Positions 10,585 through 63,134 are shown, counted from the stretch's first letter. The stretch: DNA of 64,000 nucleotides from Candidatus Heimdallarchaeota archaeon (GCA_021399345.1 JAAFKI010000112.1:45753-109752), one strand, 5' to 3'. Program-made: numbers and translations. Notes: generated by a model not told the origin, from the sequence alone.

Positions 10585-10603
10585 TCGATGGATTATCCAT
10601 CGA
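10585..10603. terminator. Perfect palindromic hairpin flanked by T-runs between convergent genes
   Basis: The sequence tcgatggat-t-atccatcga forms a 9-bp stem with a 1-nt loop. It is preceded by ttttt and followed by taatttttcttattttt, and sits between the gdhA stop (10574) and the stop of the convergent 988-aa gene (10613). Confidence 0.5.
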
Positions 10604-10612
10604 TAATTTTTC

Positions 10613-41113: not shown

Positions 41114-42358
41114 TTAATCACTTGCGGGCATAGTAATTGGAATCTTCTTTTTATTTTGGTTAAAGCTTGTAGCTTGATTTGATTTGGATTGTTTGCTTCT
41201 ATCAGTTCTTACTTTGTCGAAACTTAGCCTTTGTATTGGTTTCCTCATGAAGTCTTCTATTTTGTTAAGCACTTCCATTTGTTCATTAGTAACTAGTGAA
41301 ATTGCTTTTCCTTCATTTTCCATTCTTGAAGTCCTTCCTATTCGATGAACATATATTTCAGGTCCTTCCCTTGGCAAATCAAAGTTGAAAATATGAGTTA
41401 CATGTGGAATGTCTAGTCCTCTTGCGGCTACATTTGTGGCTATTAAGCAATCAATTTTCTTTTCTCTGAAACTTCTCAAGACATACTCTCTTTGACCTTG
41501 TGTTTTATCACCATGCAAAGTGTTGAATCTTAAACGCAATCCTCTTTCTTGAGATAAGCGTTTTTTTAGTTTATCTGCCCATCTCCTTGTATTAACAAAG
41601 ATAATTGCGGATTTAGGACGTTCCTTTCTGAGTATAGAAACAAATGTGGAATATTTCTTGTCAGGTTTGACTCTGTAATAATACTGTTGACAGTTTTCTA
41701 CTGTTAGATCATCCTTGCTAACATTTATCTCAACCAAACTCTCACCATTACTAAACTGATGAGCAATTTTTCTTATCTGTTTAAGCATGGTAGCTGAAAA
41801 AAGTAATAAGCGAGGATAAACACCTCTCATTGCATCAAAAAGAATGTATTGGATATCTGGAAGGAATCCCATATCAAGCATTCTATCAGCCTCGTCAAGT
41901 ACTACAAACCTTACATCCCTAAAGGAAATAGCTTTTCTTCTGTATAGATCCATAAGTCTTCCTGGAGTAGCTATAACAATCTGTGCTCCAGCCTTAATCT
42001 CTTTTCTTTGTTTCTCGAGAGAGACTCCACCATATATTTCAACGGCTTTCAATTTTCTATATTTATTCAATTTAGTAAACACACTGTACACTTGTTTACA
42101 TAATTCTCTAGTAGGTACTAATACAACAGCTTGAATATATCTATGTTTAGGATTAATCTGGTTTGTTATTGGAATCGCGAAAGCTAATGTTTTTCCAGTT
42201 CCAGTTTTAGCTTGACCAAGGATATGTGTTTTTCCCCTATCAAGAAGTCTAGGAATCGCTTTACTCTGAATTTTGGTTGGATCATAAATCCCCATATCGT
42301 TTAAAGCGAGTTTAATTTGATTATTTAAATCGTAATCTTGAAATTTCATTGATACCAC
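41114..42358 (-). CDS. DEAD-box ATP-dependent RNA helicase (paralog 1)
   Basis: It has a Q-motif region, a Walker A motif (AKTGTGKTLAF), PTRELC, the DEAD motif (VLDEADRMLDMGF), SAT, and HRIGRTSR. Confidence 0.9.
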   Translation of the reverse strand: MVSMKFQDYDLNNQIKLALNDMGIYDPTKIQSKAIPRLLDRGKTHILGQAKTGTGKTLAFAIPITNQINPKHRYIQAVVLVPTRELCKQVYSVFTKLNKYRKLKAVEIYGGVSLEKQRKEIKAGAQIVIATPGRLMDLYRRKAISFRDVRFVVLDEADRMLDMGFLPDIQYILFDAMRGVYPRLLLFSATMLKQIRKIAHQFSNGESLVEINVSKDDLTVENCQQYYYRVKPDKKYSTFVSILRKERPKSAIIFVNTRRWADKLKKRLSQERGLRLRFNTLHGDKTQGQREYVLRSFREKKIDCLIATNVAARGLDIPHVTHIFNFDLPREGPEIYVHRIGRTSRMENEGKAISLVTNEQMEVLNKIEDFMRKPIQRLSFDKVRTDRSKQSKSNQATSFNQNKKKIPITMPASD

Positions 42359-44043: not shown

Positions 44044-44382
44044 TCATGCTTCTAAATTTGAATTTCTCTCTTTCAAAATTTCCAAAGATATCTCTAAAAG
44101 AAAGAAATCTTCAAGTTTTATCCAAGAAGTCTTAACAAGAATAGGGAACTCGTAAGATGTAAGGGATGTACATTTGTGGTTAGAATATGAGAAAATCTCA
44201 GGATGTCCTATTTCTCCACAGAGAAGACAAATTCGCCATCTTGCTGATGACATAGAAAGTTTTTGATAAGATTCAGAATAAAGTAATATTCCCTCTTCAA
44301 AAGGAATCTTTGACAAAATAGAACAGTATTTTTTAGCGATGGATCTTATTAGTTCTTTTTTCCTATCGGTAATGTCCGGCAT
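44044..44382 (-). CDS. Small conserved protein of novel 'MPDI' zinc-ribbon-like family (paralog 1)
   Basis: It has MPDITDRKKELIRSIAKKY, ARWRICLLCG-x12-HKC, and PILVKTSWIKLEDFF. It shares the family signature with four other copies in this window. Confidence 0.6.
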   Translation of the reverse strand: MPDITDRKKELIRSIAKKYCSILSKIPFEEGILLYSESYQKLSMSSARWRICLLCGEIGHPEIFSYSNHKCTSLTSYEFPILVKTSWIKLEDFFLLEISLEILKERNSNLEA

Positions 44383-44804: not shown

Positions 44805-45464
44805 TCATAGTATAGTGAACCAAATGTCGTCAGGTGGTGTTATGAAATTGGGAATTGGCCCAGGGAATATACCCATAGGGTTCATCCAATAATATGTAAC
44901 TAAGTGATATGTACCAGGTTCTAGTGCTCCAGGCTTGAACAAAGCTCCTACATTAAACCACCATAATATTGGGTCACCATGGATATCAACACCAATACCT
45001 TTCTTAAGTGGTGTATATGTCATTTCCAGTGGTTCTCCGTTTAAGGTAGCAGTGGTAGTAAACCAAGAGAGATACTCCATACATCCTTTGTTGATATTAT
45101 CATATGTGAAAATAACTCCAAAATAATACCACATAATGAATTGAGCTAATTGAAGAACATTTTCAGTTACGTAAATTGCTCCATAAATACCATGAGCATC
45201 TTCATAGTTGTAAGTCAATCCATCGTACCATGGAACAATTCTTCCTCCATTAAATCTACCATCAAGAATTGCAGGTAATGTTTCTCTTTCAATAACATCG
45301 AACTCAGCGTTGAATGTCAAAGAATTTCCACCGTTTAGCATTGCATTGAAACTAGCTACAACGTCTCCATAAGTAACATAGTCATTTGCAGCAGCAACAG
45401 GCAGTAATCCAAAAAGTAGAATGCAAAATCCACTCAGCAAGATTACAGTTTTTTTCTTATTCAT
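44805..45464 (-). CDS. Secreted hypothetical protein
   Basis: It has a signal peptide (MNKKKTVILLSGFCILLFGLLPVAAA) and is Trp/Tyr-rich. Confidence 0.5.
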   Translation of the reverse strand: MNKKKTVILLSGFCILLFGLLPVAAANDYVTYGDVVASFNAMLNGGNSLTFNAEFDVIERETLPAILDGRFNGGRIVPWYDGLTYNYEDAHGIYGAIYVTENVLQLAQFIMWYYFGVIFTYDNINKGCMEYLSWFTTTATLNGEPLEMTYTPLKKGIGVDIHGDPILWWFNVGALFKPGALEPGTYHLVTYYWMNPMGIFPGPIPNFITPPDDIWFTIL

Positions 45465-46207: not shown

Positions 46208-48130
46208 ATGAAAGGAATTTTCGTTAAAGAGTTAGAAGAGATAGAATCGCTCATAGATAAGGGAAAGTATAACGTGGCTTTAGAGCATATTGATTCAACA
46301 TCATCTCAGGAAGCAATTTCTGCAGTGGAGAAGACAAAATGTACTATTTTTAGATATCGGGTATATTCTGAATTAGCTAAGTATGCTGAAGCTATAAAGC
46401 TTGGTGAAAAAGCCTTTGAGGAAAGCCAAAAACTAAATAATAAACACCTAATGTTTGATTCACTCGTATATTTTCCTTACATTTACTTTATTGCTGGAGA
46501 ATATGAATTGAGAAAGGAAAAAGTTAAACTTGCAGGTCAAATACTTGAATCAATTGAAGATAAAGATTCTTCAGATTATTTTCTCAGAAAAGCTATATTT
46601 CTAACTATGAAAAGTGATAGTTTTGAACAAGCTATAGAAAATCTTGAAGAAAGTATTGAAATCTCTAAGAAATTTGGATTTGATAGAATATTAGTTGATT
46701 CATACCATACGCAAGCTTGTACTTATCTTTGGTCTGGAGGAATCACAAAATCTCTTAAACTAAATCAACAAGCATTAGGTCTTGCTGAAGAAATAGATTA
46801 CTACTGGGGAATCACCAGTGCTATGTTTTCTTTAGCCGTTACCTATTTGCATAAAGGGGAATTAGAACAAGCCCTGGATTATTTCTTGCAAACAAAAACG
46901 CTAATTGAAGAAGGTGATGACTTATATTTTATAGCCTGCTTGTATTTGGATCTAGGTTATTTATATTGGTTAAAAAGAGATCTTAAATCCTCACTTGATT
47001 ATTATAAGAAATCTGTTTCCACTTTTAAAGAAGCTAAAGTTGTAAGTACACGTCATTTACCATGGACTCTATTCCGAATGAATTTAGTTCTTATTGAAAT
47101 GGAACATTATGATGAAGCACTCAAGAATATTGAACAGATTGAGCTCTTATTCCTAATGAAAGATACTCCTGTTTTCAAACTATTCTACCATCTTGCAAAA
47201 GCTGTTTTTCTTAAAACAAAAACAGATGATGATTGTTGGAATGAAGCTACACTTCTTCTCGAGGAAGTTGCTGATGAAGAACTTGTTTATCTTGAGTTAA
47301 ATGGTTTAGTAATCTTCCATCTATGTGATGTATATCTAAAGAAAATACAAACTTCAAATGATTTGGATGCATTTGGGAAACTAAAAAATAGGATACAAGA
47401 GTTAGCAGAAATGGCTAGAGAGCAAAAATCTGTCATTCTGCTTGTTCAATCTCTCTTGTTGCAATCAAAGCTAGAACTAATTGATTTAGACATTGAAAAA
47501 AGCCAATCGCTATTAGGAAAAGCACAATCTATTGCAGAGGAAAAAGGACTTACTAAACTTGCTAAGGTTGTTTCAAATGAATTTGATATTCTCTTAGATC
47601 AATTGAGTACTTGGGAAGATATGTCAACGTATTTACCAAGCTTAGAAGAAAGGTTTGAATTTACTCATATTGAAAATTATCTAAACAAAATGATGAGAGA
47701 CTATATTATACATGAAAGCATTGTTGATGAAGAAGAAGCACCAGTATTTTTCTTACTGCTGAATAAGGAAGGAGTCATTCTGTTTTCTGAGAAATTCAAT
47801 GAAGTATCTCTGGAAGGTGAATTACTTGGAGAAATATTATCATTTATCAATAGACTCAATTCAAGATCAATGTTTCCGTCTGAAACAACCAAGAGGATAA
47901 AACATAAAAATTATACAGTTGCGATTAATGCTCAAGAAGACATATTTCTAGTATATGCTTTCATTGGAAAATCTTATCATGCTTTGCAGAGAATAAATTC
48001 CCTCATCAAGGAATTTCGCACTTTTACAAGTGGGTGGCAGGAGTTTTTTGGTAAACTAAAGAACAAGGAAGAGTTGTCTTATTCTGATAGAAAACAATTA
48101 TCTGAATACCTAGAAGGTGTTTTTTTCTAA
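46208..48130 (+). CDS. TPR-repeat protein with conserved C-terminal alpha/beta domain (family member A)
   Basis: It has about 450 aa of TPR-like helical repeats and a conserved linker (LSTWEDMSTYLPSLEERFEFTHIENYLNKMM). Its C-terminal domain of about 130 aa (PVFFLLLNKEGVILFSE...IFLVYAFIGKSY) is shared with 48164..50302 and 56944..58890. Confidence 0.72.
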   Translation: MKGIFVKELEEIESLIDKGKYNVALEHIDSTSSQEAISAVEKTKCTIFRYRVYSELAKYAEAIKLGEKAFEESQKLNNKHLMFDSLVYFPYIYFIAGEYELRKEKVKLAGQILESIEDKDSSDYFLRKAIFLTMKSDSFEQAIENLEESIEISKKFGFDRILVDSYHTQACTYLWSGGITKSLKLNQQALGLAEEIDYYWGITSAMFSLAVTYLHKGELEQALDYFLQTKTLIEEGDDLYFIACLYLDLGYLYWLKRDLKSSLDYYKKSVSTFKEAKVVSTRHLPWTLFRMNLVLIEMEHYDEALKNIEQIELLFLMKDTPVFKLFYHLAKAVFLKTKTDDDCWNEATLLLEEVADEELVYLELNGLVIFHLCDVYLKKIQTSNDLDAFGKLKNRIQELAEMAREQKSVILLVQSLLLQSKLELIDLDIEKSQSLLGKAQSIAEEKGLTKLAKVVSNEFDILLDQLSTWEDMSTYLPSLEERFEFTHIENYLNKMMRDYIIHESIVDEEEAPVFFLLLNKEGVILFSEKFNEVSLEGELLGEILSFINRLNSRSMFPSETTKRIKHKNYTVAINAQEDIFLVYAFIGKSYHALQRINSLIKEFRTFTSGWQEFFGKLKNKEELSYSDRKQLSEYLEGVFF

Positions 48131-48163
48131 ATATAAAAATAATCAAAACGTTATTCCAAGAAA

Positions 48164-50302
48164 TTAAATAAGATATTGTTTAACAAGTGATGATAATTGA
48201 ATCCTAGTTTCTAAATCGATGTTTTTCTTATTTAGCACAAAATCATTCAGAGTATTTGTGATGTCAGAATCTGAGAAATAATCCACGAATCGGGTAAATT
48301 TCTGTTTAGCTAAAAATGATTTGCCAACAAAAACATAACAGAGGAATAATCCTTGAGATTTCGATAAAATACACATAAATTCACGAAATTTAATTCGAAT
48401 TATAGAAACATCAGTTTCTAATAGTTCTCTTCTTTCTAGAATCTTAGGATATAAATCTGAAAATTTGGTTTCCTCTAAAGTTCTAGATGAGAATGAATCT
48501 GAAAATTCTATTCTCCCCTCATTATTAAAAATTATAAAGAAAATAGGTTGTTCTTTTTCGATTATAACATCCGTGTAGTTAACCCATCTAGTCATCACTT
48601 TACTCAGAATCTCCTCAATGTGAGTTGTTTCAAAACGTTCTTCCAAAGAAGGCAAACGATCGGAAAGGTCATCCCAGACATCTAATTGTTCCAGAAGAAC
48701 ATCATATTCGTTAGAAATAAGTATCTCTAGTCTCTTCAATCCTTTTTCATTTGCTAGTTTTTGAGCTTCTTCAAGTACATTTAACGAATCTTCAACATTG
48801 AACTCTAATATAAATAATTTAGATTGTAAGAAATATAATTCTATTAATAATAAGAAGTTTTGATTACTTTCCGCTATATAGGAAAGATTCTTGATATTTT
48901 GTTTTAATTCTCCAATTAGTTTCATGTCCTTAGTATCTTTAAATTGTTCAAGTAAAATATCACAAAGATAAAGGTAGGATTTCTCTGTTGCTTTAAAGAA
49001 CGAAATTTGATCTTCAATCACTTTTTCAAAAATCTCTTTAGCTTTTGGTTGATTCTCTTTATTATATCTTAGAAAGATAGCCTGACTAACTTGATAATAA
49101 ATGGATATCCTCTTATTTGGATTTGACTCATTAAGTTTAGCTAGCTCAAACAAGTATTCTTCTGCTTTTACAAAATTTCTTTGTTCAGCATAAAATGTAA
49201 TTAGGTTGAAATAAGCCATCGCAACATGAATAGTACATTCATATTTTTGTCTAAATTCTAAGCTTTTCTTACTATATTCTATTGCTTGATCCAATTCTCC
49301 TTTTTGATAAAAAGTTTCTCCGAGATAGCCGTAAGCATCTCCCAAAGTAAGAAATTGTTTTGAATCGTGAAAAGCTTCCAGAACAAACTGATAGTTTTCT
49401 AGAGCTTCTGAAAGATTTCCATGGTAATAGTTTTTACACCCTCTGAGCAATTGTCTCCACCCCACATAAGAATCGCTACTTAATCCTTTCTCATAAAGAA
49501 TAGCCAACTCTTCATATTTTGAGCTATTAATCATGTCTCCACTATGAACATAAGCAAAACTCAAATGTATCATTGAATGCCATTTTCTATATTGAGAGGT
49601 AGATTCTTTTGCGTATTCTAAGTATTGAAGACCATAATCTATTGCTATTTTAAAGAATCCCTTTTCAGTATAAGCATACCTAAAGCAAGCTAAAGATCTC
49701 ATTATTAGCTCTTTATAATTGAGTTTTTTAGCAAGTAAATGCAATTCTTGAGATTTCTCTATAGATTTATCAGAATCACCCACATACATCAATGACCAAC
49801 ATAAATCATTCAAAAATTCTGAATAATAGAACTCTTCATTGAAATCTCTTATTATATTCAGAATTGTTTCTAAATAGTGGTTAAAAAGAGAGAATTGGAT
49901 ATTATACTTATATTGAAATTTTGTTTTTGCTTTTAACAAGATAATACATTTATGTCTTACTTCTTTTGATTGCTTTTTTAGCAAGTTTCTTGTTTTTAGT
50001 TGTAAAGTTTCAGGAATTTTGGAACTAGAATCCATTAATTCAATAATTTCTAATTCCATTGGTGGAGCAATATCTTCTAGAAGTTTATTTGTCTCAGCTG
50101 TTAATTCATCTCTGTCTCCAAAAAAATCAACTCTATCGATTAGAAGCATTCGCAAGATTAATGTTTCAAGCCTTTGAAAAGGGGTTATTCTGTCATTCTC
50201 TTCAATTTCTTTTATTAAGATTGAAAAGCTCCTGTGTTTTTCACTAATCAAGAACTTCTTAGCTAATTGTAAATTAGATTGTAGAGACGGCATTTGAAAC
50301 AT
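48164..50302 (-). CDS. TPR-repeat protein with conserved C-terminal alpha/beta domain (family member B)
   Basis: It has TPR repeats, a linker (LDVWDDLSDRLPSLEERFETTHIEEILSKVM) and the C-terminal domain (PIFFIIFNNEGRIEFSD...LFLCYVFVGKSF). Confidence 0.72.
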   Translation of the reverse strand: MFQMPSLQSNLQLAKKFLISEKHRSFSILIKEIEENDRITPFQRLETLILRMLLIDRVDFFGDRDELTAETNKLLEDIAPPMELEIIELMDSSSKIPETLQLKTRNLLKKQSKEVRHKCIILLKAKTKFQYKYNIQFSLFNHYLETILNIIRDFNEEFYYSEFLNDLCWSLMYVGDSDKSIEKSQELHLLAKKLNYKELIMRSLACFRYAYTEKGFFKIAIDYGLQYLEYAKESTSQYRKWHSMIHLSFAYVHSGDMINSSKYEELAILYEKGLSSDSYVGWRQLLRGCKNYYHGNLSEALENYQFVLEAFHDSKQFLTLGDAYGYLGETFYQKGELDQAIEYSKKSLEFRQKYECTIHVAMAYFNLITFYAEQRNFVKAEEYLFELAKLNESNPNKRISIYYQVSQAIFLRYNKENQPKAKEIFEKVIEDQISFFKATEKSYLYLCDILLEQFKDTKDMKLIGELKQNIKNLSYIAESNQNFLLLIELYFLQSKLFILEFNVEDSLNVLEEAQKLANEKGLKRLEILISNEYDVLLEQLDVWDDLSDRLPSLEERFETTHIEEILSKVMTRWVNYTDVIIEKEQPIFFIIFNNEGRIEFSDSFSSRTLEETKFSDLYPKILERRELLETDVSIIRIKFREFMCILSKSQGLFLCYVFVGKSFLAKQKFTRFVDYFSDSDITNTLNDFVLNKKNIDLETRIQLSSLVKQYLI

Positions 50303-50434
50303 CCAAATTAGAGATTTAACACGTTAAATACATTTTTGCATATAAATTTCTTATGCTTAAGAATCAGTACTTACATGAATCAAAACTAAATCTTCAGAAA
50401 TATAAACAAAAAAAGGAAAAATGAAGGTATTGGA

Positions 50435-51778
50435 CTATTTCTTCCTACTTCTTCTAATTACTAGAATTATTATAGAAATTGAGGTTAGGAAAAATACTAA
50501 ACCAATCTTTTGTGAAAGCTCAGGGACTATAAGGGGGGTTCCTAGAGGATAAGGGTCAACAGAACTGGCTGTTCCAGCAATGACATAATCTCCGCCGTAC
50601 CAGTTATTCCACCAGTTTCCTTCGTTGGTAGTAGTATCAAACCAAATGTTGTTAGCTCCAGAATCACTTGCTTGAGAATTTCCAATATTATTATCTATGA
50701 AATGATTATGGTGGATAATTATATTAGAAACAGCAACATCAAGAACTATACCAAAGCTTGGGTGCTGTTGAATAGTATTGTAGGTTATATTGGTGTTAAT
50801 TGTACTTTGCAATTCTAATCCAAAGACCTCACTTCCAATAAAGGAATTATTTGAGATTTGAAGATTTTCAGAATTAATAACAAGAAGGTTATTTTTTTCA
50901 TTTGCTTCAAAGGTATTGTTAATTATATCTGCATAGGAGACAATATTCATAAATATACCCGCAATTTCCCAATGTTCGAAATCAGGAAGTCCATCCATTG
51001 CTATGTTCTTCACTATGTTTTCTTTAACCAAAATTCTATCAGAATTTGTTATATAAATCCCTGCGAAGAGAGTACTTTCTTCAAGATTCATATAGTTCTC
51101 TGTAATGTTAGTGTCTGAGCAATCATAAACAAATATTACTGAATAATCTTCGGGGTCATCGCTATATTTAAGATAATTTCCAGGTTCTTCTGGGTTTGAT
51201 CGAAGTTCGTTTTCAAAGTTGTTTTTGAATGTCAAGCTTGGAGGAACTAGTTTGTAAATATCATTGTTTTTTATTCTTGAATTAGTACAATTTTTCAGAA
51301 TGATACCCTTAACATATACGAGAGTATTATCCTCAATTACTGTACCTTTAGAATCTTCAACATAAATGCCGTTTCCTAATAGCATTAAATTGTTGTTAAT
51401 TATCTTAGCCGTGTTACTTTTAACATTTTCAATTAATATTCCAGATAATGTTGAACTAACTCCTAATCGGGAAATCTCGTTGTTTCTAATTTCAAAGTAT
51501 TTTGTTGTATTTGCAACAGTAATTCCAGATTCACCTTCCCCCACCTCAATATCTTTACCTTGTATGATGTATGGATGTGTTTCATTTCCATATCCAGGAT
51601 AGCTAGCAAAATCTGAATCATCGTCAATCAATATAATAGGATCAGCCTTTATAGAGGGCAAAAGATCATTTTGAGAAAAAGCATTAGTGGTGGTAATCAT
51701 ATTACTAGGGAGAAGAAATAACAGAAGTAGTATAGAAAAAATTGTTATTGATAGTATTTTTTTATTTTTCATTTTCAC
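50435..51778 (-). CDS. Secreted parallel beta-helix protein with C-terminal TM anchor (paralog of 31874..33577)
   Basis: It has a signal peptide and beta-helix rungs (NNNLMLLGNGIYVEDSKGTVIEDNTLVYVKG...). Its C-terminal GDYVIAGTASSVDPYPLG parallels IEGDGGSIDLYPFL of the 31874 protein, and it ends with a TM helix plus RRSRKK. Confidence 0.65.
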   Translation of the reverse strand: MKMKNKKILSITIFSILLLLFLLPSNMITTTNAFSQNDLLPSIKADPIILIDDDSDFASYPGYGNETHPYIIQGKDIEVGEGESGITVANTTKYFEIRNNEISRLGVSSTLSGILIENVKSNTAKIINNNLMLLGNGIYVEDSKGTVIEDNTLVYVKGIILKNCTNSRIKNNDIYKLVPPSLTFKNNFENELRSNPEEPGNYLKYSDDPEDYSVIFVYDCSDTNITENYMNLEESTLFAGIYITNSDRILVKENIVKNIAMDGLPDFEHWEIAGIFMNIVSYADIINNTFEANEKNNLLVINSENLQISNNSFIGSEVFGLELQSTINTNITYNTIQQHPSFGIVLDVAVSNIIIHHNHFIDNNIGNSQASDSGANNIWFDTTTNEGNWWNNWYGGDYVIAGTASSVDPYPLGTPLIVPELSQKIGLVFFLTSISIIILVIRRSRKK

Positions 51779-51880
51779 ACCTTAGTTTTGTAACTTTTTT
51801 GTCACACCCTATGTAATGTATTTGCTACATATAAGTATTTTGTAGAATAGGTAAACGAAAAGTAAATATAAAAGATTCGT

Positions 51881-52321
51881 TCATTTAGATTCTTCGGATA
51901 TTGCTTCAGAAACTTCTGTTTTGATCGCTTCGGCTTTAACTTGTTTAACAACAATTTTAAGTTTAGGTATCTCAGATAATCCAATCTCTTTTAGAATCTT
52001 ATTGTGTTGCTTTTGGATTAGGAAGAATTTTCGTAGTTGAAACCATGAGGTTTTTACTAATAAAGGGACATCTTCAAATTCCAAAATGCAAGAATGATTG
52101 ATTGTTTCATCCTTAGTTTTTGTATCTCTACCTAGAGTAGTTTTGAGAATCAAACCACATTTAAAACAATATCTCCATCTTGCGGGATGAATAAACAGTT
52201 CGTTGTTTGTTTTAACATATGCTACAATACCTTTATCAAAAGGGATAGTCCAAAGCTCTTGAGCATATTTTTTCGCTATTTCCCGAATTTCAGATTTATC
52301 TGAAGCAAGTATATCTGGCAT
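51881..52321 (-). CDS. Small conserved protein of 'MPDI' family (paralog 3)
   Basis: Starting at the internal Met (52321) gives MPDILASDKSEIREIAKKYA. It has ARWRYCFKCG-x19-HSC and PLLVKTSWFQLRKFF. Confidence 0.6.
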   Translation of the reverse strand: MPDILASDKSEIREIAKKYAQELWTIPFDKGIVAYVKTNNELFIHPARWRYCFKCGLILKTTLGRDTKTKDETINHSCILEFEDVPLLVKTSWFQLRKFFLIQKQHNKILKEIGLSEIPKLKIVVKQVKAEAIKTEVSEAISEESK

Positions 52322-52444
52322 GAGAATCACTCTTCTGTTGAGGGTGTACTAGAACAAGTTACATATAAGTTTTCTTTTATCTGAAAAAACCTCTTTTTGA
52401 ATCCATTGGAGTAGATTTAAGAAATAATATGCAATAACTGTTAT

Positions 52445-52990
52445 TTGGTAAAAATGTCACTTCATGATAGAGTAGAATTTTGGTTTATTTCCTTTATTCA
52501 CGATAAATTATATAGTCTTTCTATGAACCCAAAAAAACTCTTGTTGCCTGCAGGTTTAAAAGAAGGAGATAATGTTCTTGAAGTAGGGTGTGGTCCAGGA
52601 TTTTTCACATTACCATCTGCAGAAATTGTTGGTGACAAAGGGTTCATTTATGCTATAGATATCAATCCTTTTGCTATTAGAAAGGTTAAGAAAAAAATCG
52701 CTAAAGCTGGTGTTAAGAATGTTAAAGCTATGATTGTTGATGTAACTGAAACAACTTTGAAGGATTCCAGTATAGATATAGCTTTCTTCTTTGGTGTTAT
52801 TCATTCATTATATAGTATCATTGATAGGGTCATATTAGAAATGCATAGAATCTTGAAGGACGAAGGGATAATTGCTATCCAGAAGTCAGGAAAGTCTAAG
52901 GATTGTTTGGTAGACATCATAACACAGAATAATAAGTTCAAGTTCATAGAGGAAAAAAAGAGCGTGTTAGTATTTCAAAAAATAGAATAG
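52445..52990 (+). CDS. Class I SAM-dependent methyltransferase
   Basis: It has motif I (VLEVGCGPGFFTL), a post-I acidic residue (YAIDIN) and a Rossmann-like layout. Confidence 0.7.
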   Translation: MVKMSLHDRVEFWFISFIHDKLYSLSMNPKKLLLPAGLKEGDNVLEVGCGPGFFTLPSAEIVGDKGFIYAIDINPFAIRKVKKKIAKAGVKNVKAMIVDVTETTLKDSSIDIAFFFGVIHSLYSIIDRVILEMHRILKDEGIIAIQKSGKSKDCLVDIITQNNKFKFIEEKKSVLVFQKIE

Positions 52991-53050
52991 AAAAAGAGAG
53001 TAAATTAGCTCAGTTTATTCTGGAATTATTTAAAAAAAAAGATAGAAGAA

Positions 53051-54091
53051 TTACTTCTTCACAATTTTTCTACTTAACAATGTTATTGCTAAAACTGATA
53101 CTGAAGTAATTGTCACTATTTCGATTACTCCAAAACCTGCTTTATCAATTACAGGATCTTCTAATGTTCCAACTGAAGGGTCATATGTTACTTCATCATC
53201 AAAGTGCTCAAAGCTCAAGTATGTTTGGACAGAACCATCGCCTAAGGAAGAGACTGAACAATTAACTGTCTTGTATTCATAAGAATTGTTAATCAAGTAT
53301 TGGGCTTGATTTGCATAAGCGAAGAATGCTTGGTATTGTTCTTCACCAATAGAGATCTGCTCTTTTACTGCGTCTCCATGGTTGAGTACTTTGTATTCAT
53401 AGCCGGTTGTGTTTTCATTTGCGTTTATAGGATTACCATTAGTATCGTTGAGTCTATAATTGTATGCTGTATTCATTGGTATGAAATCGAATCGTAATGC
53501 AAGGTTTGAATCTTCTCTTTGCCATGGCCAATTATCCATGATAATATCAAATTTCATCTCTTGACCACCCTTTAATTCATATCCATCGATTACTTGATCA
53601 GCTAGATATAGATGAACAACAATTGTGATCTCAAAATCACCATAATTAGGTGCATTGATTGTTTCAGAAGTATAGTTGAAATGAACAGCAGATAGTTCTT
53701 CAGTTCCTTCAGTATATTCAACATCAAAACCACTGAAAATGAATCTTACACTTGATAATGGGAGTGTGTTTGAGAATACTGGACCTGGTGGAGCTTCTTC
53801 CTTCCATAAACCTGTTTCATTAAACTGGAATACTCCATCTTCATTATAATCTAGATATTCAGTAAGTGAATGGAACATAACATTGTATTCAAATCCTGCA
53901 TCTGTCATAAATTGGAATTTAGGAACTTGCCCTCCAGCTTTGGCAATAAAGTGCATGTCATAATAAGAAAATGTCACTTGGTTGTTATCTTCTATCCATA
54001 AGAAGTCTTGATCATCTGCACTTACTTGAGTAACTACAAGTAATGCTAGAAACGCTAAACCGATTGTTATTTTGATTGCTTTGTGTTTCAT
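53051..54091 (-). CDS. Secreted surface (glyco)protein with C-terminal TM anchor
   Basis: It has a signal peptide, at least six N-x-S/T sequons, and a C-terminal VIEIVTITSVSVLAITLLSRKIVKK. Confidence 0.5.
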   Translation of the reverse strand: MKHKAIKITIGLAFLALLVVTQVSADDQDFLWIEDNNQVTFSYYDMHFIAKAGGQVPKFQFMTDAGFEYNVMFHSLTEYLDYNEDGVFQFNETGLWKEEAPPGPVFSNTLPLSSVRFIFSGFDVEYTEGTEELSAVHFNYTSETINAPNYGDFEITIVVHLYLADQVIDGYELKGGQEMKFDIIMDNWPWQREDSNLALRFDFIPMNTAYNYRLNDTNGNPINANENTTGYEYKVLNHGDAVKEQISIGEEQYQAFFAYANQAQYLINNSYEYKTVNCSVSSLGDGSVQTYLSFEHFDDEVTYDPSVGTLEDPVIDKAGFGVIEIVTITSVSVLAITLLSRKIVKK

Positions 54092-54214
54092 TTTTGCTCA
54101 GCATTTCTTATTCTTCCCTTTTTGAATAGGTTCTCATTTATACAACCAAAGTTTGATTACTTTAGAAAACTAAAGTTAGTGAAAATAAGAAAAAAAGAAG
54201 AAAATAACATAACA

Positions 54215-55582
54215 TTATGTTATGCTCATATCTAAAGTTAGAAAGGCATGAGAATCTGAGATAGACCAGTAAACAGGAGGAAGTGGATAGCCATATAGTG
54301 GAAACATCCAATAATTTGTCCCTACTATAGCCATAGTTCCATAACCTGCCACATTTAGATAGAGAAGGTCATCTTCTAGTGGTGGGAATTCAGATTTCGC
54401 AATTTTGAACTCAAACATCCTATGATCTTCTGCACAATTTTCACTAGAACCATAAGAATAACCAATATCATAGTTTCCAGAAGCAATGGTGTTACCAACT
54501 ATCGATGCTATGTCACCCCCTGTGATTCTAAGTGAAAGTTTATCGATTTGGAGTTCATATGCAGTTGGAACTACATCTTCATCATTCCAGCAGTGAATTG
54601 TGAAATAAAACATTCCATTTGAAGCATTGATATTATTATGATTGAGGTCTACTGAACCGCTTACTATTGTATCTGCAGCGAAACTTATTTCGTTAACATC
54701 ATTTAGAAATGTACCTTCACTCATGTTTCCTGGTATTCCACCGTGTTCTGCAAAAGAGCAATAAAACTCATCAGGTACTCCAAAGTGTCCTACTGGATTT
54801 GAGGTTAAATTAGCTTTTAGTCTATATTCTAAATCCATATCAGTTACACTTGCCATGAACAATCCAATTATTTCATCTGGGATCTTTTCAGTGATATTGA
54901 CTCCAAATTGGATATCTAAGAAGTCTCCTGCCAACCAAAATCCACCACTCTCATAATTATAAGAACTTCCTGTATAGTTGCTGTTATCATATTCTGTCCA
55001 GAAATCATAAAAATCTCCAGTTGTATTTCCTCTAAGTACTTCTAATGTATCCATTTCTGGTACAATCGGGATATCTGGGTAAACATGTGTGCTAGGAATT
55101 GGATTTAATTCAAAATCGAACACATTATCACCACTTACATTATAGAATAAATACTCATATCCATAATCTTCTAATGAAAACAAAGCGAGTTTCGAATCCC
55201 AAGTATCAGGTAAACGATTTGCTAAGTGAAAAGCAAGCCATTCACCGTCTTCATTATTCGTTCTGTCAGAACATAAGTCTAATGCAATATAGTAGAAATC
55301 ATCATCTTCCGCTACCGAAAGGTAATTCCATCCATCTACATTGGCCAAGTCTACGACTGGATCAATTTCATTATCTATATCTAAGTAAAATGGTATATTA
55401 TAGTACGAACTTTGTAACCATTCACGTTTCTCAATTACACCATCAATTGTTGGAGTAATTTTAGCTGGGTCACTATTAAACTGCCAATCATTCCCCATTA
55501 GCCATCCTACAAAGAAAGCACCCCCACCAATAGCTAAAACAAGGACAATTGCAGTTACTTTAATACTTGAACTTTTTGACAT
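54215..55582 (-). CDS. Secreted/anchored hypothetical protein
   Basis: It has an N-terminal signal anchor (VTAIVLVLAIGGGAFFVGWLMG) and many N-x-S/T sequons. Confidence 0.5.
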   Translation of the reverse strand: MSKSSSIKVTAIVLVLAIGGGAFFVGWLMGNDWQFNSDPAKITPTIDGVIEKREWLQSSYYNIPFYLDIDNEIDPVVDLANVDGWNYLSVAEDDDFYYIALDLCSDRTNNEDGEWLAFHLANRLPDTWDSKLALFSLEDYGYEYLFYNVSGDNVFDFELNPIPSTHVYPDIPIVPEMDTLEVLRGNTTGDFYDFWTEYDNSNYTGSSYNYESGGFWLAGDFLDIQFGVNITEKIPDEIIGLFMASVTDMDLEYRLKANLTSNPVGHFGVPDEFYCSFAEHGGIPGNMSEGTFLNDVNEISFAADTIVSGSVDLNHNNINASNGMFYFTIHCWNDEDVVPTAYELQIDKLSLRITGGDIASIVGNTIASGNYDIGYSYGSSENCAEDHRMFEFKIAKSEFPPLEDDLLYLNVAGYGTMAIVGTNYWMFPLYGYPLPPVYWSISDSHAFLTLDMSIT

Positions 55583-55716
55583 ATTTTTGACCTTTTTTAT
55601 TTTTTAACCTTTTTAATTTGTAAAAAGATAGATACAATTATAGCGAGAGATGATATATACTTTTCCCAAAATTTTAAGCCTAGATAATGCGAAAGTCATA
55701 AAAGAGGGGAAAGGAA

Positions 55717-56415
55717 ATGAAATTGATGAAGAAAATAGGTATAATAGGTGGACTGAGTGCTGAATCTACTATTGAGTATTATAAGATACTAATCAAGGAA
55801 TATAACAAACGAAAAGGGGGAAAGTCTTCACCTCTACTCATAATAGATAGTCTAGATTTAGAAGAAGCTGTAAATTTAATGAGTAATAACGATTGGGATG
55901 GAGTTTTTAATATCATTTTCCAATCTGCTAAAAATCTAGAACATGCAGGTGCAGAAGTTATCATCATTGCAACCAATACCATTCACAAAGTCTTTGAAAG
56001 ATTACAAAAGAAAATCAAGACCCCGATGATTAGTATATTGGATGTAACTGCAGAAGCTGCTAAATCCAAAAATCTGAAGAAAATAGGTCTTTTGGGGACA
56101 ATTTTCACAATGCAATCAGATTTCTTTCAAAAAGCATTCCAAAGATATAATCTAGAAATTATTGTACCTAACCAAGAAGATCAAGAATTTATTAATGAAA
56201 TCATTTTCAACGAACTGACGTTTAATATAATAAAGTCTGAATCTAAAAGAGGATATCTAGAAGTAATTGAAAGATTACAACAAGAGGGAGCTGAAGGAGT
56301 TATCCTAGGATGTACTGAAATCCCCTTATTAATTAAGCAGAAAGACAGTCCCATACCTGTATTTGACACAACCACCCTTCATGCAATGGCTGCTCTAGAA
56401 TATGCAATGAAGTAA
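55717..56415 (+). CDS. Aspartate/glutamate racemase family protein
   Basis: It has MKKIGIIGGLSAESTIEYY, an N-terminal Cys region (IIIATNTIH) and a C-terminal GCTEIPLL with the second catalytic Cys. Confidence 0.78.
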   Translation: MKLMKKIGIIGGLSAESTIEYYKILIKEYNKRKGGKSSPLLIIDSLDLEEAVNLMSNNDWDGVFNIIFQSAKNLEHAGAEVIIIATNTIHKVFERLQKKIKTPMISILDVTAEAAKSKNLKKIGLLGTIFTMQSDFFQKAFQRYNLEIIVPNQEDQEFINEIIFNELTFNIIKSESKRGYLEVIERLQQEGAEGVILGCTEIPLLIKQKDSPIPVFDTTTLHAMAALEYAMK

Positions 56416-56524
56416 GATTCTCTTTCAAATACATTTATCCGGCATTACTCATATTTTACTACTAAAACAAGATATAAATACATTTCAACTCTCTGTAGCT
56501 TACTTATAGTGAAATCTCTACATA

Positions 56525-56947
56525 GTGATAACTCAAAATGACATGGTGAACATAATGACTGCTGAAACTGTGGAGTTGAAATTCGATCAAGAAGAGATAG
56601 ATAAAGCTGAGGAAGAATACAAGAAGCTTCATCTAGATCCTGCTCAACAAGACATGGTTGACTCCATAACAAAAATCATGAATGAACTGGTGCCAATACC
56701 TGAAGCAGCTATTAAGGGATTCACATGGAAAGTCATGAGTAATTGGCAGAGGATGCGTAGAATTACAATAGCCGAGTTAAATAATAGACCTCTAAGAGAT
56801 AGAATAGAGGTAACTAAAGAGATGATTAAGCAAGCAAAGAAATTTTTTGTTAGTCTTCTTTCAGAATCTACACCTGAGCAGAGAGAGATACTGGAAAGAA
56901 AGTTTGATACGGTTTTAAAACAAAGCTCAGAGTTATTGAAAAATTAG
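56525..56947 (+). CDS. Hypothetical protein
   Basis: A 140-aa helical ORF with no motifs. Confidence 0.35.
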   Translation: MITQNDMVNIMTAETVELKFDQEEIDKAEEEYKKLHLDPAQQDMVDSITKIMNELVPIPEAAIKGFTWKVMSNWQRMRRITIAELNNRPLRDRIEVTKEMIKQAKKFFVSLLSESTPEQREILERKFDTVLKQSSELLKN

Positions 56948-58890
56948 ACAAAGATTGATTCTAAATAATCAGATAATCTTGTTCTGTCAGACAAACTCAG
57001 TTCTTGATTGGAGTTTATTTTTGTGCTTAAATCACCCCAGATTTCTGAAAATGTGCTAAAATCAGTGATAAGTTTCTTTATTTTCTGTACAGCAGAATAA
57101 GATTTACCAACAAAGACATAACTAAGTAGCATATTTTCACTGTGATAAAGAACTATGCCAAAATTCCTAAATTGAAGACGATAAGAAGTGTTTTTATCAG
57201 GTTCTTTTTCTTCTAGAAAGTCATGTATTGTAGTTATTATCCCCTCAACTAAATCATTTTCTAGAGGAATATCTTCAAAATTATCTGAAAAGACAACATG
57301 ACCAGTTTTATCCATAATCAGGAAAATACTTGGATCTTCAATTTCATGAGAAACATCTGCAAAGCTTATTCTATTCTTAATTAGCTTATTCATCATATCC
57401 TCTAAATGAGTTAACTCCATACGATCAGCAATATTTGGAAGTTTAGTAGTGAAACTTTCCCAGCTGCTAATTTGTTCTAGAAGATGATCGTATTCATTAG
57501 AAATTAGTGTCGCTAAGCGAGTTATACCTTTTTCATCTGCAATATTTTGGGCTTTTTCTAACATTATTTTTGCTTCTTCAATTTTAAGTTCTATTAGTGC
57601 TAAATGAGATTTGAGCATATAGGTTTCAGCAAGTAAAACCGATGATTTCTGCTTTTTTGCAAGTTCATCTAGTTGATTTATAGTTTGTTTAAGAGGTAAA
57701 AGCAATTCTAAATCGTTGGTCTGTTTCAATCTTCGAAGATAAAAATCACATAAATGAAATAAAGCCATCCTGTTCATTTCTATATAAATCAACTTCTCTT
57801 GAACAATCTCCTTCAACATTTTTTCTATTTTATCTTGATTATCATCAAAAGAACGCGCTTTAAGATAGATAGATTGAGCTAGATTGTAAATATGCACTAA
57901 GGGATAGCTTTCAACACTTGCATCTTGCAAACTTCTAATAGTAGCGACTATTTCCATTTTTTCTAAGTTTTGTTTTATATCTTCGTATTTTCCTTGTTCA
58001 AGATAAACTAAATTTGTTCTGAAAAGTACAGCAAGATAATGTCTATTTCCAAAAAGCTTCCCTCTTTTTATTTGCCCTAACGATTTCTTATAATATTGTA
58101 ATGAAGTTTCCAATTCCCCTTTTTGCCAATAATAGAACCCTAAATCAGCATATATTGCACCCAAGCTGTAAGAAGAATCAATCTCTTCCGCATATGATAG
58201 TGCCTTCAATGAGTATCTAAGATATTCGTCTAGTTCTCCTTTTTGAATAAAAACTGCTGCAATATTAGTTGTACATGCAATAATTCCCACAATATTACCT
58301 AGTTCTGTAAAAATCTTCAAACTTTGATTATAATAATTCCCACTCTTAGAATAATCCCCCTGTTCAAAAAAAGCATAAGCTTTGCCAAATAGATGCCAAG
58401 CTTTCTGATACTCGTCTCCTACTTGTTCAAATATATCTATAGCTTGATCTATTTTATCCATGTATTTTTCTGATCTACTACTAATCCCAAATGTAAGAAT
58501 TCTTGCTTTCCTTTTGAGATATTCTGGTGATTCTTTATCCTTGTATTTTTCAAGAACTTCTATTGCATGCTTCATTTTTTCGCTAGCTGATTCGCCTATG
58601 CCTAAGTAGCTAGAGGATCGAGCATAAGCCATAGCTGAATCGAAAATTAAGAATGTATCACCGATTTTGACACTTTTTTCATAAGCTTGTTTAGCATTTT
58701 CTAATGCCTCAGAGAATGGTTGAATATCGAGAAATATTTTTGCTTTGAGGATTTTTGCTTGAATAATTTCTTCTTCAAGAAGTTCCTTTCTTTTCAGAAG
58801 ATTATTCAATTGTTTTAGAGATTCTTGATACTTACTGCTAATAATTAATTGTTCTATTTCTTTTAGTTCAGTAGAAAATACCCCTTTCAT
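56944..58890 (-). CDS. TPR-repeat protein with conserved C-terminal alpha/beta domain (family member C)
   Basis: Its N-terminus MKGVFSTELKEIEQLI parallels MKGIFVKELEEIESLI of member A. It has the linker ISSWESFTTKLPNIADRMELTHLEDMMNKLI and the C-terminal PSIFLIMDKTGHVVFSD...LLSYVFVGKSY. Confidence 0.72.
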   Translation of the reverse strand: MKGVFSTELKEIEQLIISSKYQESLKQLNNLLKRKELLEEEIIQAKILKAKIFLDIQPFSEALENAKQAYEKSVKIGDTFLIFDSAMAYARSSSYLGIGESASEKMKHAIEVLEKYKDKESPEYLKRKARILTFGISSRSEKYMDKIDQAIDIFEQVGDEYQKAWHLFGKAYAFFEQGDYSKSGNYYNQSLKIFTELGNIVGIIACTTNIAAVFIQKGELDEYLRYSLKALSYAEEIDSSYSLGAIYADLGFYYWQKGELETSLQYYKKSLGQIKRGKLFGNRHYLAVLFRTNLVYLEQGKYEDIKQNLEKMEIVATIRSLQDASVESYPLVHIYNLAQSIYLKARSFDDNQDKIEKMLKEIVQEKLIYIEMNRMALFHLCDFYLRRLKQTNDLELLLPLKQTINQLDELAKKQKSSVLLAETYMLKSHLALIELKIEEAKIMLEKAQNIADEKGITRLATLISNEYDHLLEQISSWESFTTKLPNIADRMELTHLEDMMNKLIKNRISFADVSHEIEDPSIFLIMDKTGHVVFSDNFEDIPLENDLVEGIITTIHDFLEEKEPDKNTSYRLQFRNFGIVLYHSENMLLSYVFVGKSYSAVQKIKKLITDFSTFSEIWGDLSTKINSNQELSLSDRTRLSDYLESIFV

Positions 58891-61184: not shown

Positions 61185-62483
61185 TCATCCATAAATTGAT
61201 GTATCTGCGAATGTTTCAGGAAAGTCTTCGTCTTCGAAATCTTCTGGTTTCTGACTTGGTGAAGATTTTTTATCTTGTGAAGGTTTAGTCTTAGGAAATC
61301 GACCATGTCTTTCACGATCTTGTTCTCTTTCTTGTTTGTATAAGTAATATCTTCGGATGTCTTTCTTCATAAACATCTCAATACGTCTAATCATATTCCT
61401 TTCTTCGCCATCTATTAGAGAGATTGCGACACCTGCTCTTTCCATCCTTGAAGTTCTTCCTATTCTATGAATATAATTTTCAGGATTTCCGATAGGTAGA
61501 TCATAATTGAAGATATGAGAAACGTGAGGGATGTCTAATCCTCTTGCTGCGACATCTGTAGCAATAAGACATGTGATTTTATCTTTTCTAAACTCTCGCA
61601 TAGAAATTTCTCTTTGTCTTTGTGACATATCTCCCTGAAGCGCACCTACCCTCATATGGATTCTTTTATCGTTGGTCAGTTTTCGCTCCAGGTTTGCACC
61701 CCATCTTTTAGTATTAACAAAAACAATACTTGATTTTGGTTTTTCTCTTAATAGAATATTAACAAAGGAGTTGTATTTTTTCTTAGGATCCGGTACTTCA
61801 TAGTAATATTGTTTGCAAGAACCTACAGTCAAATCATCTCTACTAACATCTATCTCTACGATGTTCTCTTCTAAACTATAATCAAGCATTATGTCTTTTA
61901 CTTCAGGTAGCATAGTAGCTGAGAACAGAAGAAATCTAGGGTAGACATCTTTCATTGCTTCAAATAGAATATAATTAACATCTGGGAGAAATCCCATATC
62001 GAGCATGCGATCAGCCTCGTCAAGTACTACAAAACTCACTTCTCTGAAAGAAATTGCTTTTCTATTGAATAAATCTATTAGTCTTCCAGGAGTGGCTACA
62101 ACAATCTGAGCTCCTGAGCGGATATTTTCTATTTGTCTGTTGATGGAAACTCCTCCATAAACCTCAACAGCTTTTAATCTTCTATGTGTATTCAGTTTGG
62201 TAATTACTGTATAAACTTGTTTACATAACTCTCTTGTAGGAACTAAAATTACTGCTTGAACTTTTCTTAGTGTGGGGTCGAGTTCTTCGGTAATTGGTAT
62301 AGCGAAAGCTAATGTCTTTCCTGTACCTGTTTTAGCTTGCGATAAAATATGTGTTTTTTCTCCCTTTAGTATCTCGGGAATAGCTTTTTCTTGAATATCT
62401 GTGGGTGTATGAATTCCCATTTCTTGTAAAGCTTGCTTTATTTGGTCATTAATCTTGTAATCTTTAAATTTCATTAGTATCAT
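61185..62483 (-). CDS. DEAD-box ATP-dependent RNA helicase (paralog 2)
   Basis: It has the same motif set as 41114..42358 (AKTGTGKTLAFAIPI, VLDEADRMLDMGF, SAT, HRIGRTSR). The two N-termini are nearly identical (MKFKDYKINDQIKQAL versus MKFQDYDLNNQIKLAL). Confidence 0.9.
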   Translation of the reverse strand: MILMKFKDYKINDQIKQALQEMGIHTPTDIQEKAIPEILKGEKTHILSQAKTGTGKTLAFAIPITEELDPTLRKVQAVILVPTRELCKQVYTVITKLNTHRRLKAVEVYGGVSINRQIENIRSGAQIVVATPGRLIDLFNRKAISFREVSFVVLDEADRMLDMGFLPDVNYILFEAMKDVYPRFLLFSATMLPEVKDIMLDYSLEENIVEIDVSRDDLTVGSCKQYYYEVPDPKKKYNSFVNILLREKPKSSIVFVNTKRWGANLERKLTNDKRIHMRVGALQGDMSQRQREISMREFRKDKITCLIATDVAARGLDIPHVSHIFNYDLPIGNPENYIHRIGRTSRMERAGVAISLIDGEERNMIRRIEMFMKKDIRRYYLYKQEREQDRERHGRFPKTKPSQDKKSSPSQKPEDFEDEDFPETFADTSIYG

Positions 62484-62774: not shown

Positions 62775-63134
62775 GCCAGATATACCAAATAAAGAAAAAC
62801 AAGAGATCAGAATATTGGCAGAGGATTTCAGTTGTTTAATTGCAACCCTTTCATTCAAAAAGGCTCTTATATCTTCTATGAAGTTTTCAAGTCTCTCTAT
62901 AGTAGATCAGCTAGATGGAGATATTGTTTGATTTGTGGTAATATAGATTTACCTACGGATTTTATCCATAAGGATCCAAACTACCCCCAAGTATCTTGTC
63001 ACAAAATCCAGTCACTAATACCAACTTCTTGGATGAAACTAAGAGATTTCTTCATTAAAAGTAATTATAAGAAACTCCTCAAAGCAATGGGGGTTCAAAA
63101 TGTAGAAAAAAAGACAACCAGTGCCTCTAATTAA
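62775..63134 (+). pseudogene. 'MPDI' family paralog 4, frameshifted
   Basis: An ATG at 62775 gives MPDIPNKEKQEIRILAEDF... and then a stop at about 62928. The conserved remainder (ARWRYCLICG...SCHK...IPTSWMKLRDFF) continues in ORF 62832..63134 in another frame. Confidence 0.45.

Follow-up and report, generated by a model that had tools for sequence, protein, structure and literature searches.

A tetratricopeptide repeat protein family of Asgard archaea with a predicted C-terminal longin-fold domain

Introduction

Longin and roadblock domains are 'eukaryotic signature' parts common to Asgard archaea and to the trafficking and nutrient-signalling machinery of eukaryotes. Characterised longins are dimerising protein-interaction platforms, namely guanine nucleotide exchange factors (GEFs) and GTPase-activating proteins (GAPs) of GTPases, adaptor small subunits and SNARE regulators, and are not small-molecule sensors; heterodimers are common among them. 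The roadblock domain has its helices (a) and strands (b) in the order a-b-b-a-b-b-b, the N-terminal helix packing against the sheet and no more than one helix following at the C-terminus. The present report describes three genes, P1, P2 and P3, from a stretch of 64,000 nucleotides of Candidatus Heimdallarchaeota archaeon (GCA_021399345.1 JAAFKI010000112.1:45753-109752), referred to below as the window. They encode tetratricopeptide repeat (TPR) proteins of 640, 712 and 648 amino acids (aa), respectively, each ending in an alpha/beta domain that is predicted to have the longin fold.

Approximately 41 longin-like domains are reported for Lokiarchaeum (cited in PMC4917890), and 130 asCOGs of roadblock/longin type, with many Asgard-only architectures, have been described (bioRxiv 10.1101/2020.10.19.343400). 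An AlphaFold2 (AF2) model of an MK-D1 longin is available, and the same work notes that operons joining GTPases and longins are lacking (PMC10933270). What defines GAP-type longins is a GP motif located where the b1-b2 loop ends or b2 starts (PMC12290439). A fusion of TPR and longin domains is not mentioned in the searchable literature texts; the asCOG supplementary tables, in which it may be listed without comment, and Klinger et al. 2016 lay outside that search.

Protein features

The P1, P2 and P3 open reading frames (ORFs) are all intact. In end-to-end alignment P2 is 26% and P3 35% identical to P1 over the full length, and the C-terminal 181 aa of P1 match P2 and P3 in BLASTP with E values of 1e-33 and 1e-46, respectively. 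By these sequence comparisons, with BLASTP values well outside chance expectation, the three are paralogs, as had been stated in an initial annotation of this DNA, which gave no strands and whose coordinates and lengths were confirmed by the ORFs. In each protein a solenoid of TPR/MalT type leads through a conserved helical linker into an alpha/beta domain of approximately 133 aa at the C-terminus. Pfam families matched by P1-P3 are TPR families only (TPR_12, TPR_MalT; approximately residues 120-520), the TPR_MalT match of P2 (1.7e-13) exceeding the curated cutoff, and NCBIfam likewise returned TPR only. P1-P3 contain no Walker A motif and match no nucleoside triphosphatase (NTPase), DNA-binding, helix-turn-helix (HTH) or enzyme family, in agreement with the lack of a DNA-binding domain noted initially. 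Signal peptides or membrane segments are not evident by eye in the three proteins; no predictor was run.

Two AF2 models of P1 were built, one of the C-terminal 181 aa alone from a 7-sequence alignment (predicted local distance difference test, pLDDT, 68.9) and one of the full-length protein from a 47-sequence alignment (pLDDT 88.8; predicted TM-score, pTM, 0.83). In the full-length model the domain, residues 508-640, comprises strands 511-519 and 524-529, helix 537-552, strands 561-566, 569-576 and 579-586, and helices 589-604, 608-618 and 625-639. Both models agree on the order b-b-a-b-b-b-a-a-a, the model of the isolated region having two linker helices ahead of it, and the five predicted strands mostly reach a pLDDT of 85-91 in the full-length model. 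The order b1-b2-a1-b3-b4-b5-a2-a3 within approximately 120-140 aa, characteristic of longins, is thus present in the P1 domain, in place of the b-a-b-b-a pattern sketched earlier. The string FFLLLNKEGVILFSE...YAFIGKSYHALQRI quoted with that sketch was located at P1 residues 514-596. The claim of a separate C-terminal domain of about 130 aa was borne out, the AF2 models showing neither further TPR helices nor a disordered tail in this region.

The model of the C-terminal 181 aa (pLDDT 68.9) was used as the Foldseek query against the PDB, and 50 matches were listed. Fifteen had E<=1e-3, and 14 of these are the VAMP7/SYBL1 longin, AP1/AP2 sigma or zeta-COP, with the VAMP7 longin in first place (6e-5). 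The only non-longin among them is the roadblock-type MglC at rank 15. TRAPP Bet5/Trs23, Ykt6 and Fuzzy follow just above E 1e-3, interspersed with the roadblock proteins LAMTOR, MglB, km23 and Prometheoarchaeum Rbl2. The nearest solved structures are longin domains. The 50 listed matches name neither a profilin nor a GAF or PAS domain. Among the folds proposed in the initial annotation (roadblock/LC7, longin or profilin-like) the longin therefore fits best, with roadblock ranking lower and no profilin named; the accompanying description as a small sensor domain found no support.

At the sequence level, a Pfam scan of the last 180 aa of P1-P3 returned nothing significant. In 41 diverse family members PF19036 Fuz_longin_1 (first longin of FUZ/MON1/HPS1) appeared below threshold in 11, with a best E value of 0.0028, and no other family recurred; the best match of P3 to this model (E 0.015; 16 bits against a cutoff of 26.1) covers residues 63-151 of its C-terminal segment. 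The small profile A2 picked up AP-4 sigma at E 0.13, and hhalign placed b1 through a2 in register with AP2 sigma, the sequence used being identical to chain 2jkr_I (E 0.011, probability 4%). With an unverified sequence of the VAMP7 longin hhalign gave no match, and the deep family profile A3 gave only noise against PDB sequences. UniRef lists one family fragment as 'FUZ/MON1/HPS1 first Longin...'. Sequence-level support for the assignment is weak but consistent, and taking the models and structural matches as a guide the C-terminal domain of the P1 type very probably has the longin fold.

The solenoid was modelled with 27 helices between P1 residues 6 and 496, and tandem 34-residue repeats forming a superhelix are indicated by Pfam for P1-P3 and by AF2 and Foldseek for P1. 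Foldseek matches of the full-length P1 model include LGN/Pins, TSK, Tom70/71, Ctr9, APC subunits, Rap, MalT domain III and consensus TPR. All are TPR superhelices of the generic kind that binds peptides or ligands, and no chain described as solenoid plus longin occurs among the 50 best matches. The linker helices of P1 span residues 449-464, 466-475, 479-486 and 488-496, with approximately 14 non-helical residues between the last of them and b1; an E-x-P motif (510-512) starts right after the linker. The linker motif reads LSTWEDMSTYLPSLEERFEFTHIE in P1, LDVWDDLSDRLPSLEERFETTHIE in P2 and ISSWESFTTKLPNIADRMELTHLE in P3. It is present in all three proteins, as annotated initially, except that P3 opens with I instead of L. 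The conserved end that had been proposed, S(Y/L)SDR..LS(E/D)YLE, was recovered in the 640-aa P1 and the 648-aa P3, and the 712-aa P2 ends in DLETRIQLSSLVKQYLI.

Family distribution and conservation

The profile search covered 1.84 billion representative proteins exhaustively and found 780 clusters (50% identity) with E<=1e-3, 520 of them with E<=1e-10. Members are mostly 600-830 aa long, with roughly 440-630 aa ahead of the domain; shorter entries resemble pieces cut off at the ends of contigs. The domain lies at the extreme C-terminus (tail <10 residues) in approximately 110 of the 122 matches that reach the domain end, a count based on the 150 best hits plus the genome loci. Scanning prokaryotic genomes, one for each species, yielded 26 loci, nearly all from Heimdallarchaeota metagenome-assembled genomes (MAGs; AB_125; CSMAG_2184, 97% identity) and a few from Thor- or Promethearchaeota, and several copies occur per Heimdall genome. 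Named metagenomic members come from Loki, Thor, Hermod, Hod and Heimdall. All 26 genome loci and all organism-named matches are Asgard or named merely 'archaeon'. The TPR-longin proteins form a large Asgard-specific family in which the order of the three parts is fixed. In public records they go by 'tetratricopeptide repeat protein' or 'hypothetical protein', so that the family is missed when longins are counted by sequence.

In the linker D460 and W469 are conserved in nearly 100% of the family and R482 in 85-90% (P1 numbering, as below). In the domain, G522 is conserved in 97% and R563 in 99% of 293 sequences, and the near-invariant residues are G522, R563, Y583, G587, S589, Y590 and K595. 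The signature also includes E510-x-P512, F526, F530 and [DE]-R563-[IV]-[KR] in b3; the b5/a2 junction reads C-Y583-x-F-x-G587-x-S589-Y590-x-A-x-x-K595, and G522 stands in the b1-b2 turn. Along the protein, conservation is highest over residues 401-480, which take in the final helices of the solenoid and the first part of the linker, and has a second peak over 561-600, from b3 through b5 and into a2. Residues 1-320 show low conservation and vary most within the solenoid, and the lowest values of all fall on 601-640. The last solenoid helices and the linker with D460, W469 and R482 make up a conserved helical junction, and R563 is a candidate interface or catalytic residue.

Gene neighbourhoods were compared in a set of 111 loci with 931 ORFs, made up of 26 genome loci, 80 metagenome loci found with sub-alignment A5, four contig look-ups and the window region. 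In 13 cases two full-length paralogs lie next to or close to each other, one set being a tandem triple, with identities from 29% to 70%. The pairing of a 712-type with a 640-type gene recurs in four genomes (L002, L009 and L010 among the pair loci) at a pair identity of 29-30%. A TIR domain follows the longin in two members, P0109 and P0148 (PADLOC TIR models, 3e-8 to 3e-7; Pfam TIR_2 for P0109). At locus L111 (JGI Ga0115863_1000308) P0109, at 8001-10388, is succeeded by a 793-aa gene at 10590-12971 with TPR_MalT and TIR_2.

Some database 'proteins' of 120-160 aa that resemble free-standing longins are apparently 3' pieces of TPR-longin genes broken by a frameshift or by gene calling (L028 4437-6462; L029 2049-3853; L030 1277-3081). 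Two such putative stand-alone relatives were checked, at the three loci L028, L029 and L030, and were rejected: they lie directly downstream of a TPR ORF, overlapping it in L028. The short entries P0250 and P0254 start inside strand b1. As these ORFs adjoin a TPR ORF or start within b1, they are not evidence for an independent longin gene family; their arrangement points to split or frameshifted TPR-longin genes. One such 3' fragment bears the UniRef longin name cited above.

Genomic context

The features of the window are listed in Table 1. P1 and P2 are convergent and separated by 33 bp. The window was searched for further family copies and for small GTPases, and none was found beyond P1, P2 and P3. 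Each of the three has syntenic orthologs in related Heimdall genomes; in view of this conserved synteny they are old paralogs and not recent duplicates.

Table 1. Positions of the TPR-longin genes, their parts and neighbouring features in the window
Feature	Position	Strand	Evidence or remark
P1, TPR-longin protein, 640 aa	46208..48130	+	ORF; Pfam TPR_12 1.2e-16 and TPR_MalT; AF2 full-length model
P1 TPR-like solenoid, aa 1-455	46208..47572	+	~24 of 27 AF2 helices; Foldseek LGN/Pins, Tom70, Rap, MalT domain III
P1 conserved helical linker, aa 456-507	47573..47728	+	D460, W469, R482; family alignments A1-A4; AF2 helices
P1 predicted longin-fold domain, aa 508-640	47729..48127	+	AF2 strands and helices; Foldseek; near-invariant residues
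P2, TPR-longin paralog, 712 aa	48164..50302	-	ORF; TPR_MalT 1.7e-13
P2 linker, aa 530-581	48560..48715	-	BLASTP alignment to P1
P2 predicted longin-fold domain, aa 582-712	48167..48559	-	BLASTP mapping to P1; family profile A3 E 3.8e-52
P3, TPR-longin paralog, 648 aa	56944..58890	-	ORF; TPR_12 2.5e-15
P3 linker, aa 464-515	57346..57501	-	Gap-free BLASTP alignment to P1
P3 predicted longin-fold domain, aa 516-648	56947..57345	-	BLASTP mapping to P1; weak Pfam Fuz_longin_1 E 0.015
Small CxxC..HxC protein, divergently upstream of P1	45608..46087	-	Same arrangement in L003-L007; no Pfam match
Neighbours upstream of P2, co-directional	50435..52330	-	Small CxxC..HxC protein 51881-52330; NosD-like beta-helix protein 50435-51778 (Pfam Beta_helix, NosD)
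Small CxxC..HxC paralog	44044..44382	-	
Small CxxC..HxC paralog	62832..63134	+	
Small CxxC..HxC paralog	63162..63803	-	
140-aa ORF, convergent with P3	56525..56947	+	4-bp overlap with the P3 stop codon; kept in 8 related loci; no family match
DEAD-box helicase	41114..42358	-	60% identical to the second copy
DEAD-box helicase, second copy	61185..62483	-	
Predicted secreted/membrane-anchored protein	44805..45464	-	Hydrophobic N-terminus
Predicted secreted/membrane-anchored protein	53051..54091	-	Hydrophobic N-terminus and C-terminal anchor
Predicted secreted/membrane-anchored protein	54215..55582	-	Hydrophobic N-terminus

The gene order small CxxC..HxC protein, beta-helix protein, TPR-longin gene is found in the window and in L009, L010, L016 and L021. 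These two neighbours of P2, like the small protein upstream of P1, are given as context only. Genes of the 648 type are flanked by an ORF of 134-140 aa and an Asp/Glu racemase on one side and by an M20 peptidase on the other. Across the 111 loci no neighbour is conserved family-wide, the associations with aldehyde:ferredoxin oxidoreductase (AOR)/ferredoxin genes and with small CxxC genes being limited to lineages.

The five small-protein paralogs of the window are 100-213 aa long and share the motif ARW[KR]xC[LF]xCG ... HxC ... P.L[IV]KTSW.KL..FF, which has a Zn-ribbon-like look. No match was found in Pfam (four of the five copies scanned), NCBIfam (two of five) or PADLOC (two of five). Their family comprises 99 clusters, all named 'hypothetical' and almost all from Heimdallarchaeota, with a TPR-longin gene as recurrent neighbour. 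The two DEAD-box helicase paralogs flank the region, each a few kb from a TPR-longin gene and small CxxC copies, an arrangement that suggests an old segmental duplication. The predicted secreted or membrane-anchored proteins encoded between the TPR-longin genes include, besides those so named in Table 1, the product of 50435-51778, a NosD-like parallel beta-helix protein that likewise has a hydrophobic N-terminus and a hydrophobic C-terminal anchor; the remaining three have no family match.

A protein of 575-654 aa is encoded a few genes from a family member in nine loci (L019, L022, L026, L029, L030, L032, L037, L038, L062), mostly with a partner gene of 158-178 aa. In L029 and L030, for which Pfam hits are on record, the two are an AOR (AFOR_N/AFOR_C) and a 4Fe-4S ferredoxin. 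Three of the nine loci are separate places in one Heimdall MAG. The proximity may be coincidence, because such enzymes could simply be abundant. In the Promethearchaeota locus L028 an Arf/Ras-type small GTPase lies immediately downstream of the family gene, and three small GTPases lie within 10 kb in L027.

Proposed function and alternatives

By analogy with described proteins, the TPR-longin proteins would be modular scaffolds. The variable TPR groove would bind a peptide or protein partner specific to each paralog, as do arrays of the LGN, Rap and MalT type, and the conserved linker-longin module would provide a common output. This output would be a platform, formed by homo- or heterodimerisation, on which a regulator docks, as in characterised longin and roadblock domains, with R563 at the start of b3 and Y-x-F-x-G-x-S-Y at the b5/a2 junction as candidate interface residues. 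The adjacent paralog pairs, including the 712/640 pairs, fit the formation of heterodimers. A scaffold with a dimerising longin output is put forward tentatively, with a likelihood judged somewhat short of even. The docked regulator would most plausibly be a Ras-superfamily small GTPase, a partner also proposed by analogy and considered doubtful; the small GTPase genes near family members at L028 and L027 speak in its favour.

Several results weigh against these proposals. The Foldseek TM-scores of the longin-class matches are moderate (0.41-0.64, target-normalised) and come from the lower-confidence model, and no Pfam or PDB sequence-profile match reaches significance for the family domain, so that it is chiefly the predicted structure that argues for homology to eukaryotic longins. 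The GP motif is absent from the family: G522 is followed by V/I/T/L/A, and P stands at +2 in only 12% of 293 sequences. Many of the tandem pairs are 40-70% identical, which makes them recent duplicates rather than co-evolved partners. Small GTPases, which account for 1.9% of all 931 ORFs, are not enriched beside family genes, where they make up 5 of the 178 directly neighbouring ORFs (2.8%) while their share farther away is mostly 1.4-3.7%, and the window contains none. An operon link to small GTPases was accordingly rejected.

Another reading is a peptide- or ligand-sensing regulator, in which the TPR array would recognise a peptide or metabolite and the C-terminal domain would act as a further sensor or as the output, with DNA binding left to separate proteins acting in trans, such as those of the small CxxC..HxC family. 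The initial annotation had seen such an architecture here, and the likeness of the TPR shape to LGN, Rap and MalT domain III stands: the highest target-normalised TM-scores of the TPR part among the listed matches belong to Rap (0.67-0.71) and MalT domain III (0.63), all ligand-sensing TPRs. The Zn-ribbon-like family with its five window copies is moreover a recurrent neighbour in 12 related loci, including the conserved co-directional trio with the 712-type gene, and AOR-type genes occur near family members in the nine loci named above. The small-protein family is nevertheless Heimdall-restricted (99 clusters) beside the far broader TPR-longin family (780 clusters) and has no DNA-binding domain recognised by Pfam; the 50 listed Foldseek matches name no fold that senses small molecules, GAF and PAS included, and no neighbour is kept across the whole family. 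The regulator itself is left unsupported and appears rather unlikely. Slightly less probable still is a sensor of conflict or innate-immunity type, whose diversifying TPR array would detect a foreign or stress-related protein and whose longin would oligomerise and recruit or activate an effector, rarely a fused TIR. The large family growing by tandem duplication (pairs and a triple, 40-70% identity), the variable N-terminal TPR part beside a conserved C-terminal module, and the TIR domains of P0109, P0148 and the gene beside P0109 argue for it. TIR is found, however, in only two of approximately 150 listed members, there is no effector such as an NTPase or a nuclease, nor does one recur as a neighbour, and the syntenic orthologs of the window genes are stable across several Heimdall genomes, which is atypical for defence islands. 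P1-P3 match no PADLOC model except generic TPR; membership of the window proteins in a defence system was rejected, defence models matching just the rare TIR-fused relatives.

A coat- or adaptor-like unit, with the longin packed on the solenoid as a fused analogue or relative of the large/small-subunit halves of the AP/COPI F-subcomplex or of the solenoid-plus-longin parts of TRAPP, would accord with AP1/AP2 sigma and zeta-COP among the best structural matches of the domain, with the fact that sequence profiles reached no solved longins other than AP-4 sigma and AP2 sigma, and with the full-length pTM of 0.83, which suggests a fixed solenoid-longin arrangement. It is very improbable all the same, given that the solenoid is TPR/MalT-like and not HEAT/ARM, that no adaptin or coatomer large subunit is among the top 50 Foldseek matches of the full-length model, that the top domain match is the VAMP7 longin and not sigma, and that no appendage, mu-homology or membrane-binding element was found. 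The bolder proposal of an Asgard invention, in which solenoid and longin form one small-GTPase-regulated unit and a fused prokaryotic counterpart of an AP/COPI adaptor-core, TRAPP or GAP-complex building block, is just as much a long shot; if true, it would offer a direct handle on the pre-eukaryotic assembly of trafficking-type machinery. That the C-terminal region is no independent domain but more TPR helices or a disordered tail can practically be discounted as far as predicted structure allows, with the same strands predicted confidently in the full-length model and again in the isolated one, family-wide invariant residues within them, and alpha/beta longin and roadblock domains as the best structural matches.

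The TPR-longin architecture alone shows neither trafficking nor any specific function. Recognition of the family enlarges the Asgard longin inventory, provides a testable conserved module with defined residues (W469, R563, Y583, G587, S589), and gives candidate scaffolds for many orphan Asgard small GTPases.

Comparison with known systems

The N-terminal 450-500 aa of the family resemble in shape the TPR receptors LGN/Pins, Rap/RRNPP and MalT domain III. LGN joins its TPR array to a G-protein-binding module (GoLoco), an architectural analogy to the family. The family differs from these receptors in lacking an HTH, the phosphatase-binding three-helix bundle, an NB-ARC ATPase or GoLoco, and in having a longin as its proposed output module; the fusion of HTH or NB-ARC/STAND ATPase to TPR that marks RRNPP and MalT-STAND regulators is not found in P1-P3 (Pfam, NCBIfam). 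Roadblock/LC7 proteins (MglB, LAMTOR, dynein km23, Prometheoarchaeum Rbl2 9jq8) have a related alpha/beta sandwich and appear from Foldseek rank 15 onward, below the longins. The family order, b-b-a-b-b-b followed by two or three helices after b5, is that of longins and not of roadblock domains.

With the eukaryotic trafficking longins (VAMP7/Ykt6, AP sigma, zeta-COP, TRAPP Bet5/Trs23, Fuzzy/Mon1/HPS1) the family domain has in common a size of approximately 130 aa and the order b-b-a-b-b-b-a-a, and these are its best structural matches. It forms, however, the C-terminal end of a TPR protein of 640-830 aa instead of standing alone like sigma or zeta, and occurs without a SNARE motif, membrane anchor, tri-longin or DENN context. 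Longin SNAREs begin with a longin and continue with a SNARE motif and then a membrane anchor, whereas the family domain is C-terminal; no SNARE match at E<=1 is listed by Pfam for P1-P3, the weak 'SNAP' match of P2 being to the NSF-attachment protein family. The tri-longin Rab GEFs (Mon1-Ccz1, Fuzzy-Inturned, HPS1-HPS4) have three consecutive longins, whereas P1 was modelled with one alpha/beta domain and is otherwise helical. GAP-type longins (FLCN, SMCR8/C9orf72, NPRL2) and their Heimdall look-alikes (PMC12290439) have in common with the family the longin fold and occurrence in the Heimdall group, and R563, near-invariant in the family, is a candidate counterpart of the catalytic arginine finger next to their GP motif, but the family has no GP motif just before b2, no DENN and no NPRL2 C-terminal domain. 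GAP-longin identity was tested by the GP motif and rejected, the subtype being unlikely because the motif is missing. Sequence similarity to the curated longin families lies below every threshold, and the family has its own residue signature.

The roadblock/longin proteins already described from Asgard archaea belong to the same phylum and fold class, and like the present family display lineage-specific expansion, domain shuffling and no operon link to GTPases. Those longins are stand-alone or fused to GTPases, TRAPPC3, DENN, NPRL2-type tails or two-component domains, whereas in the present family the domain is fused to TPR. The longin fold itself was to be expected in the phylum; what the TPR-longin proteins add is a large class of Asgard longin architectures that had gone without annotation.

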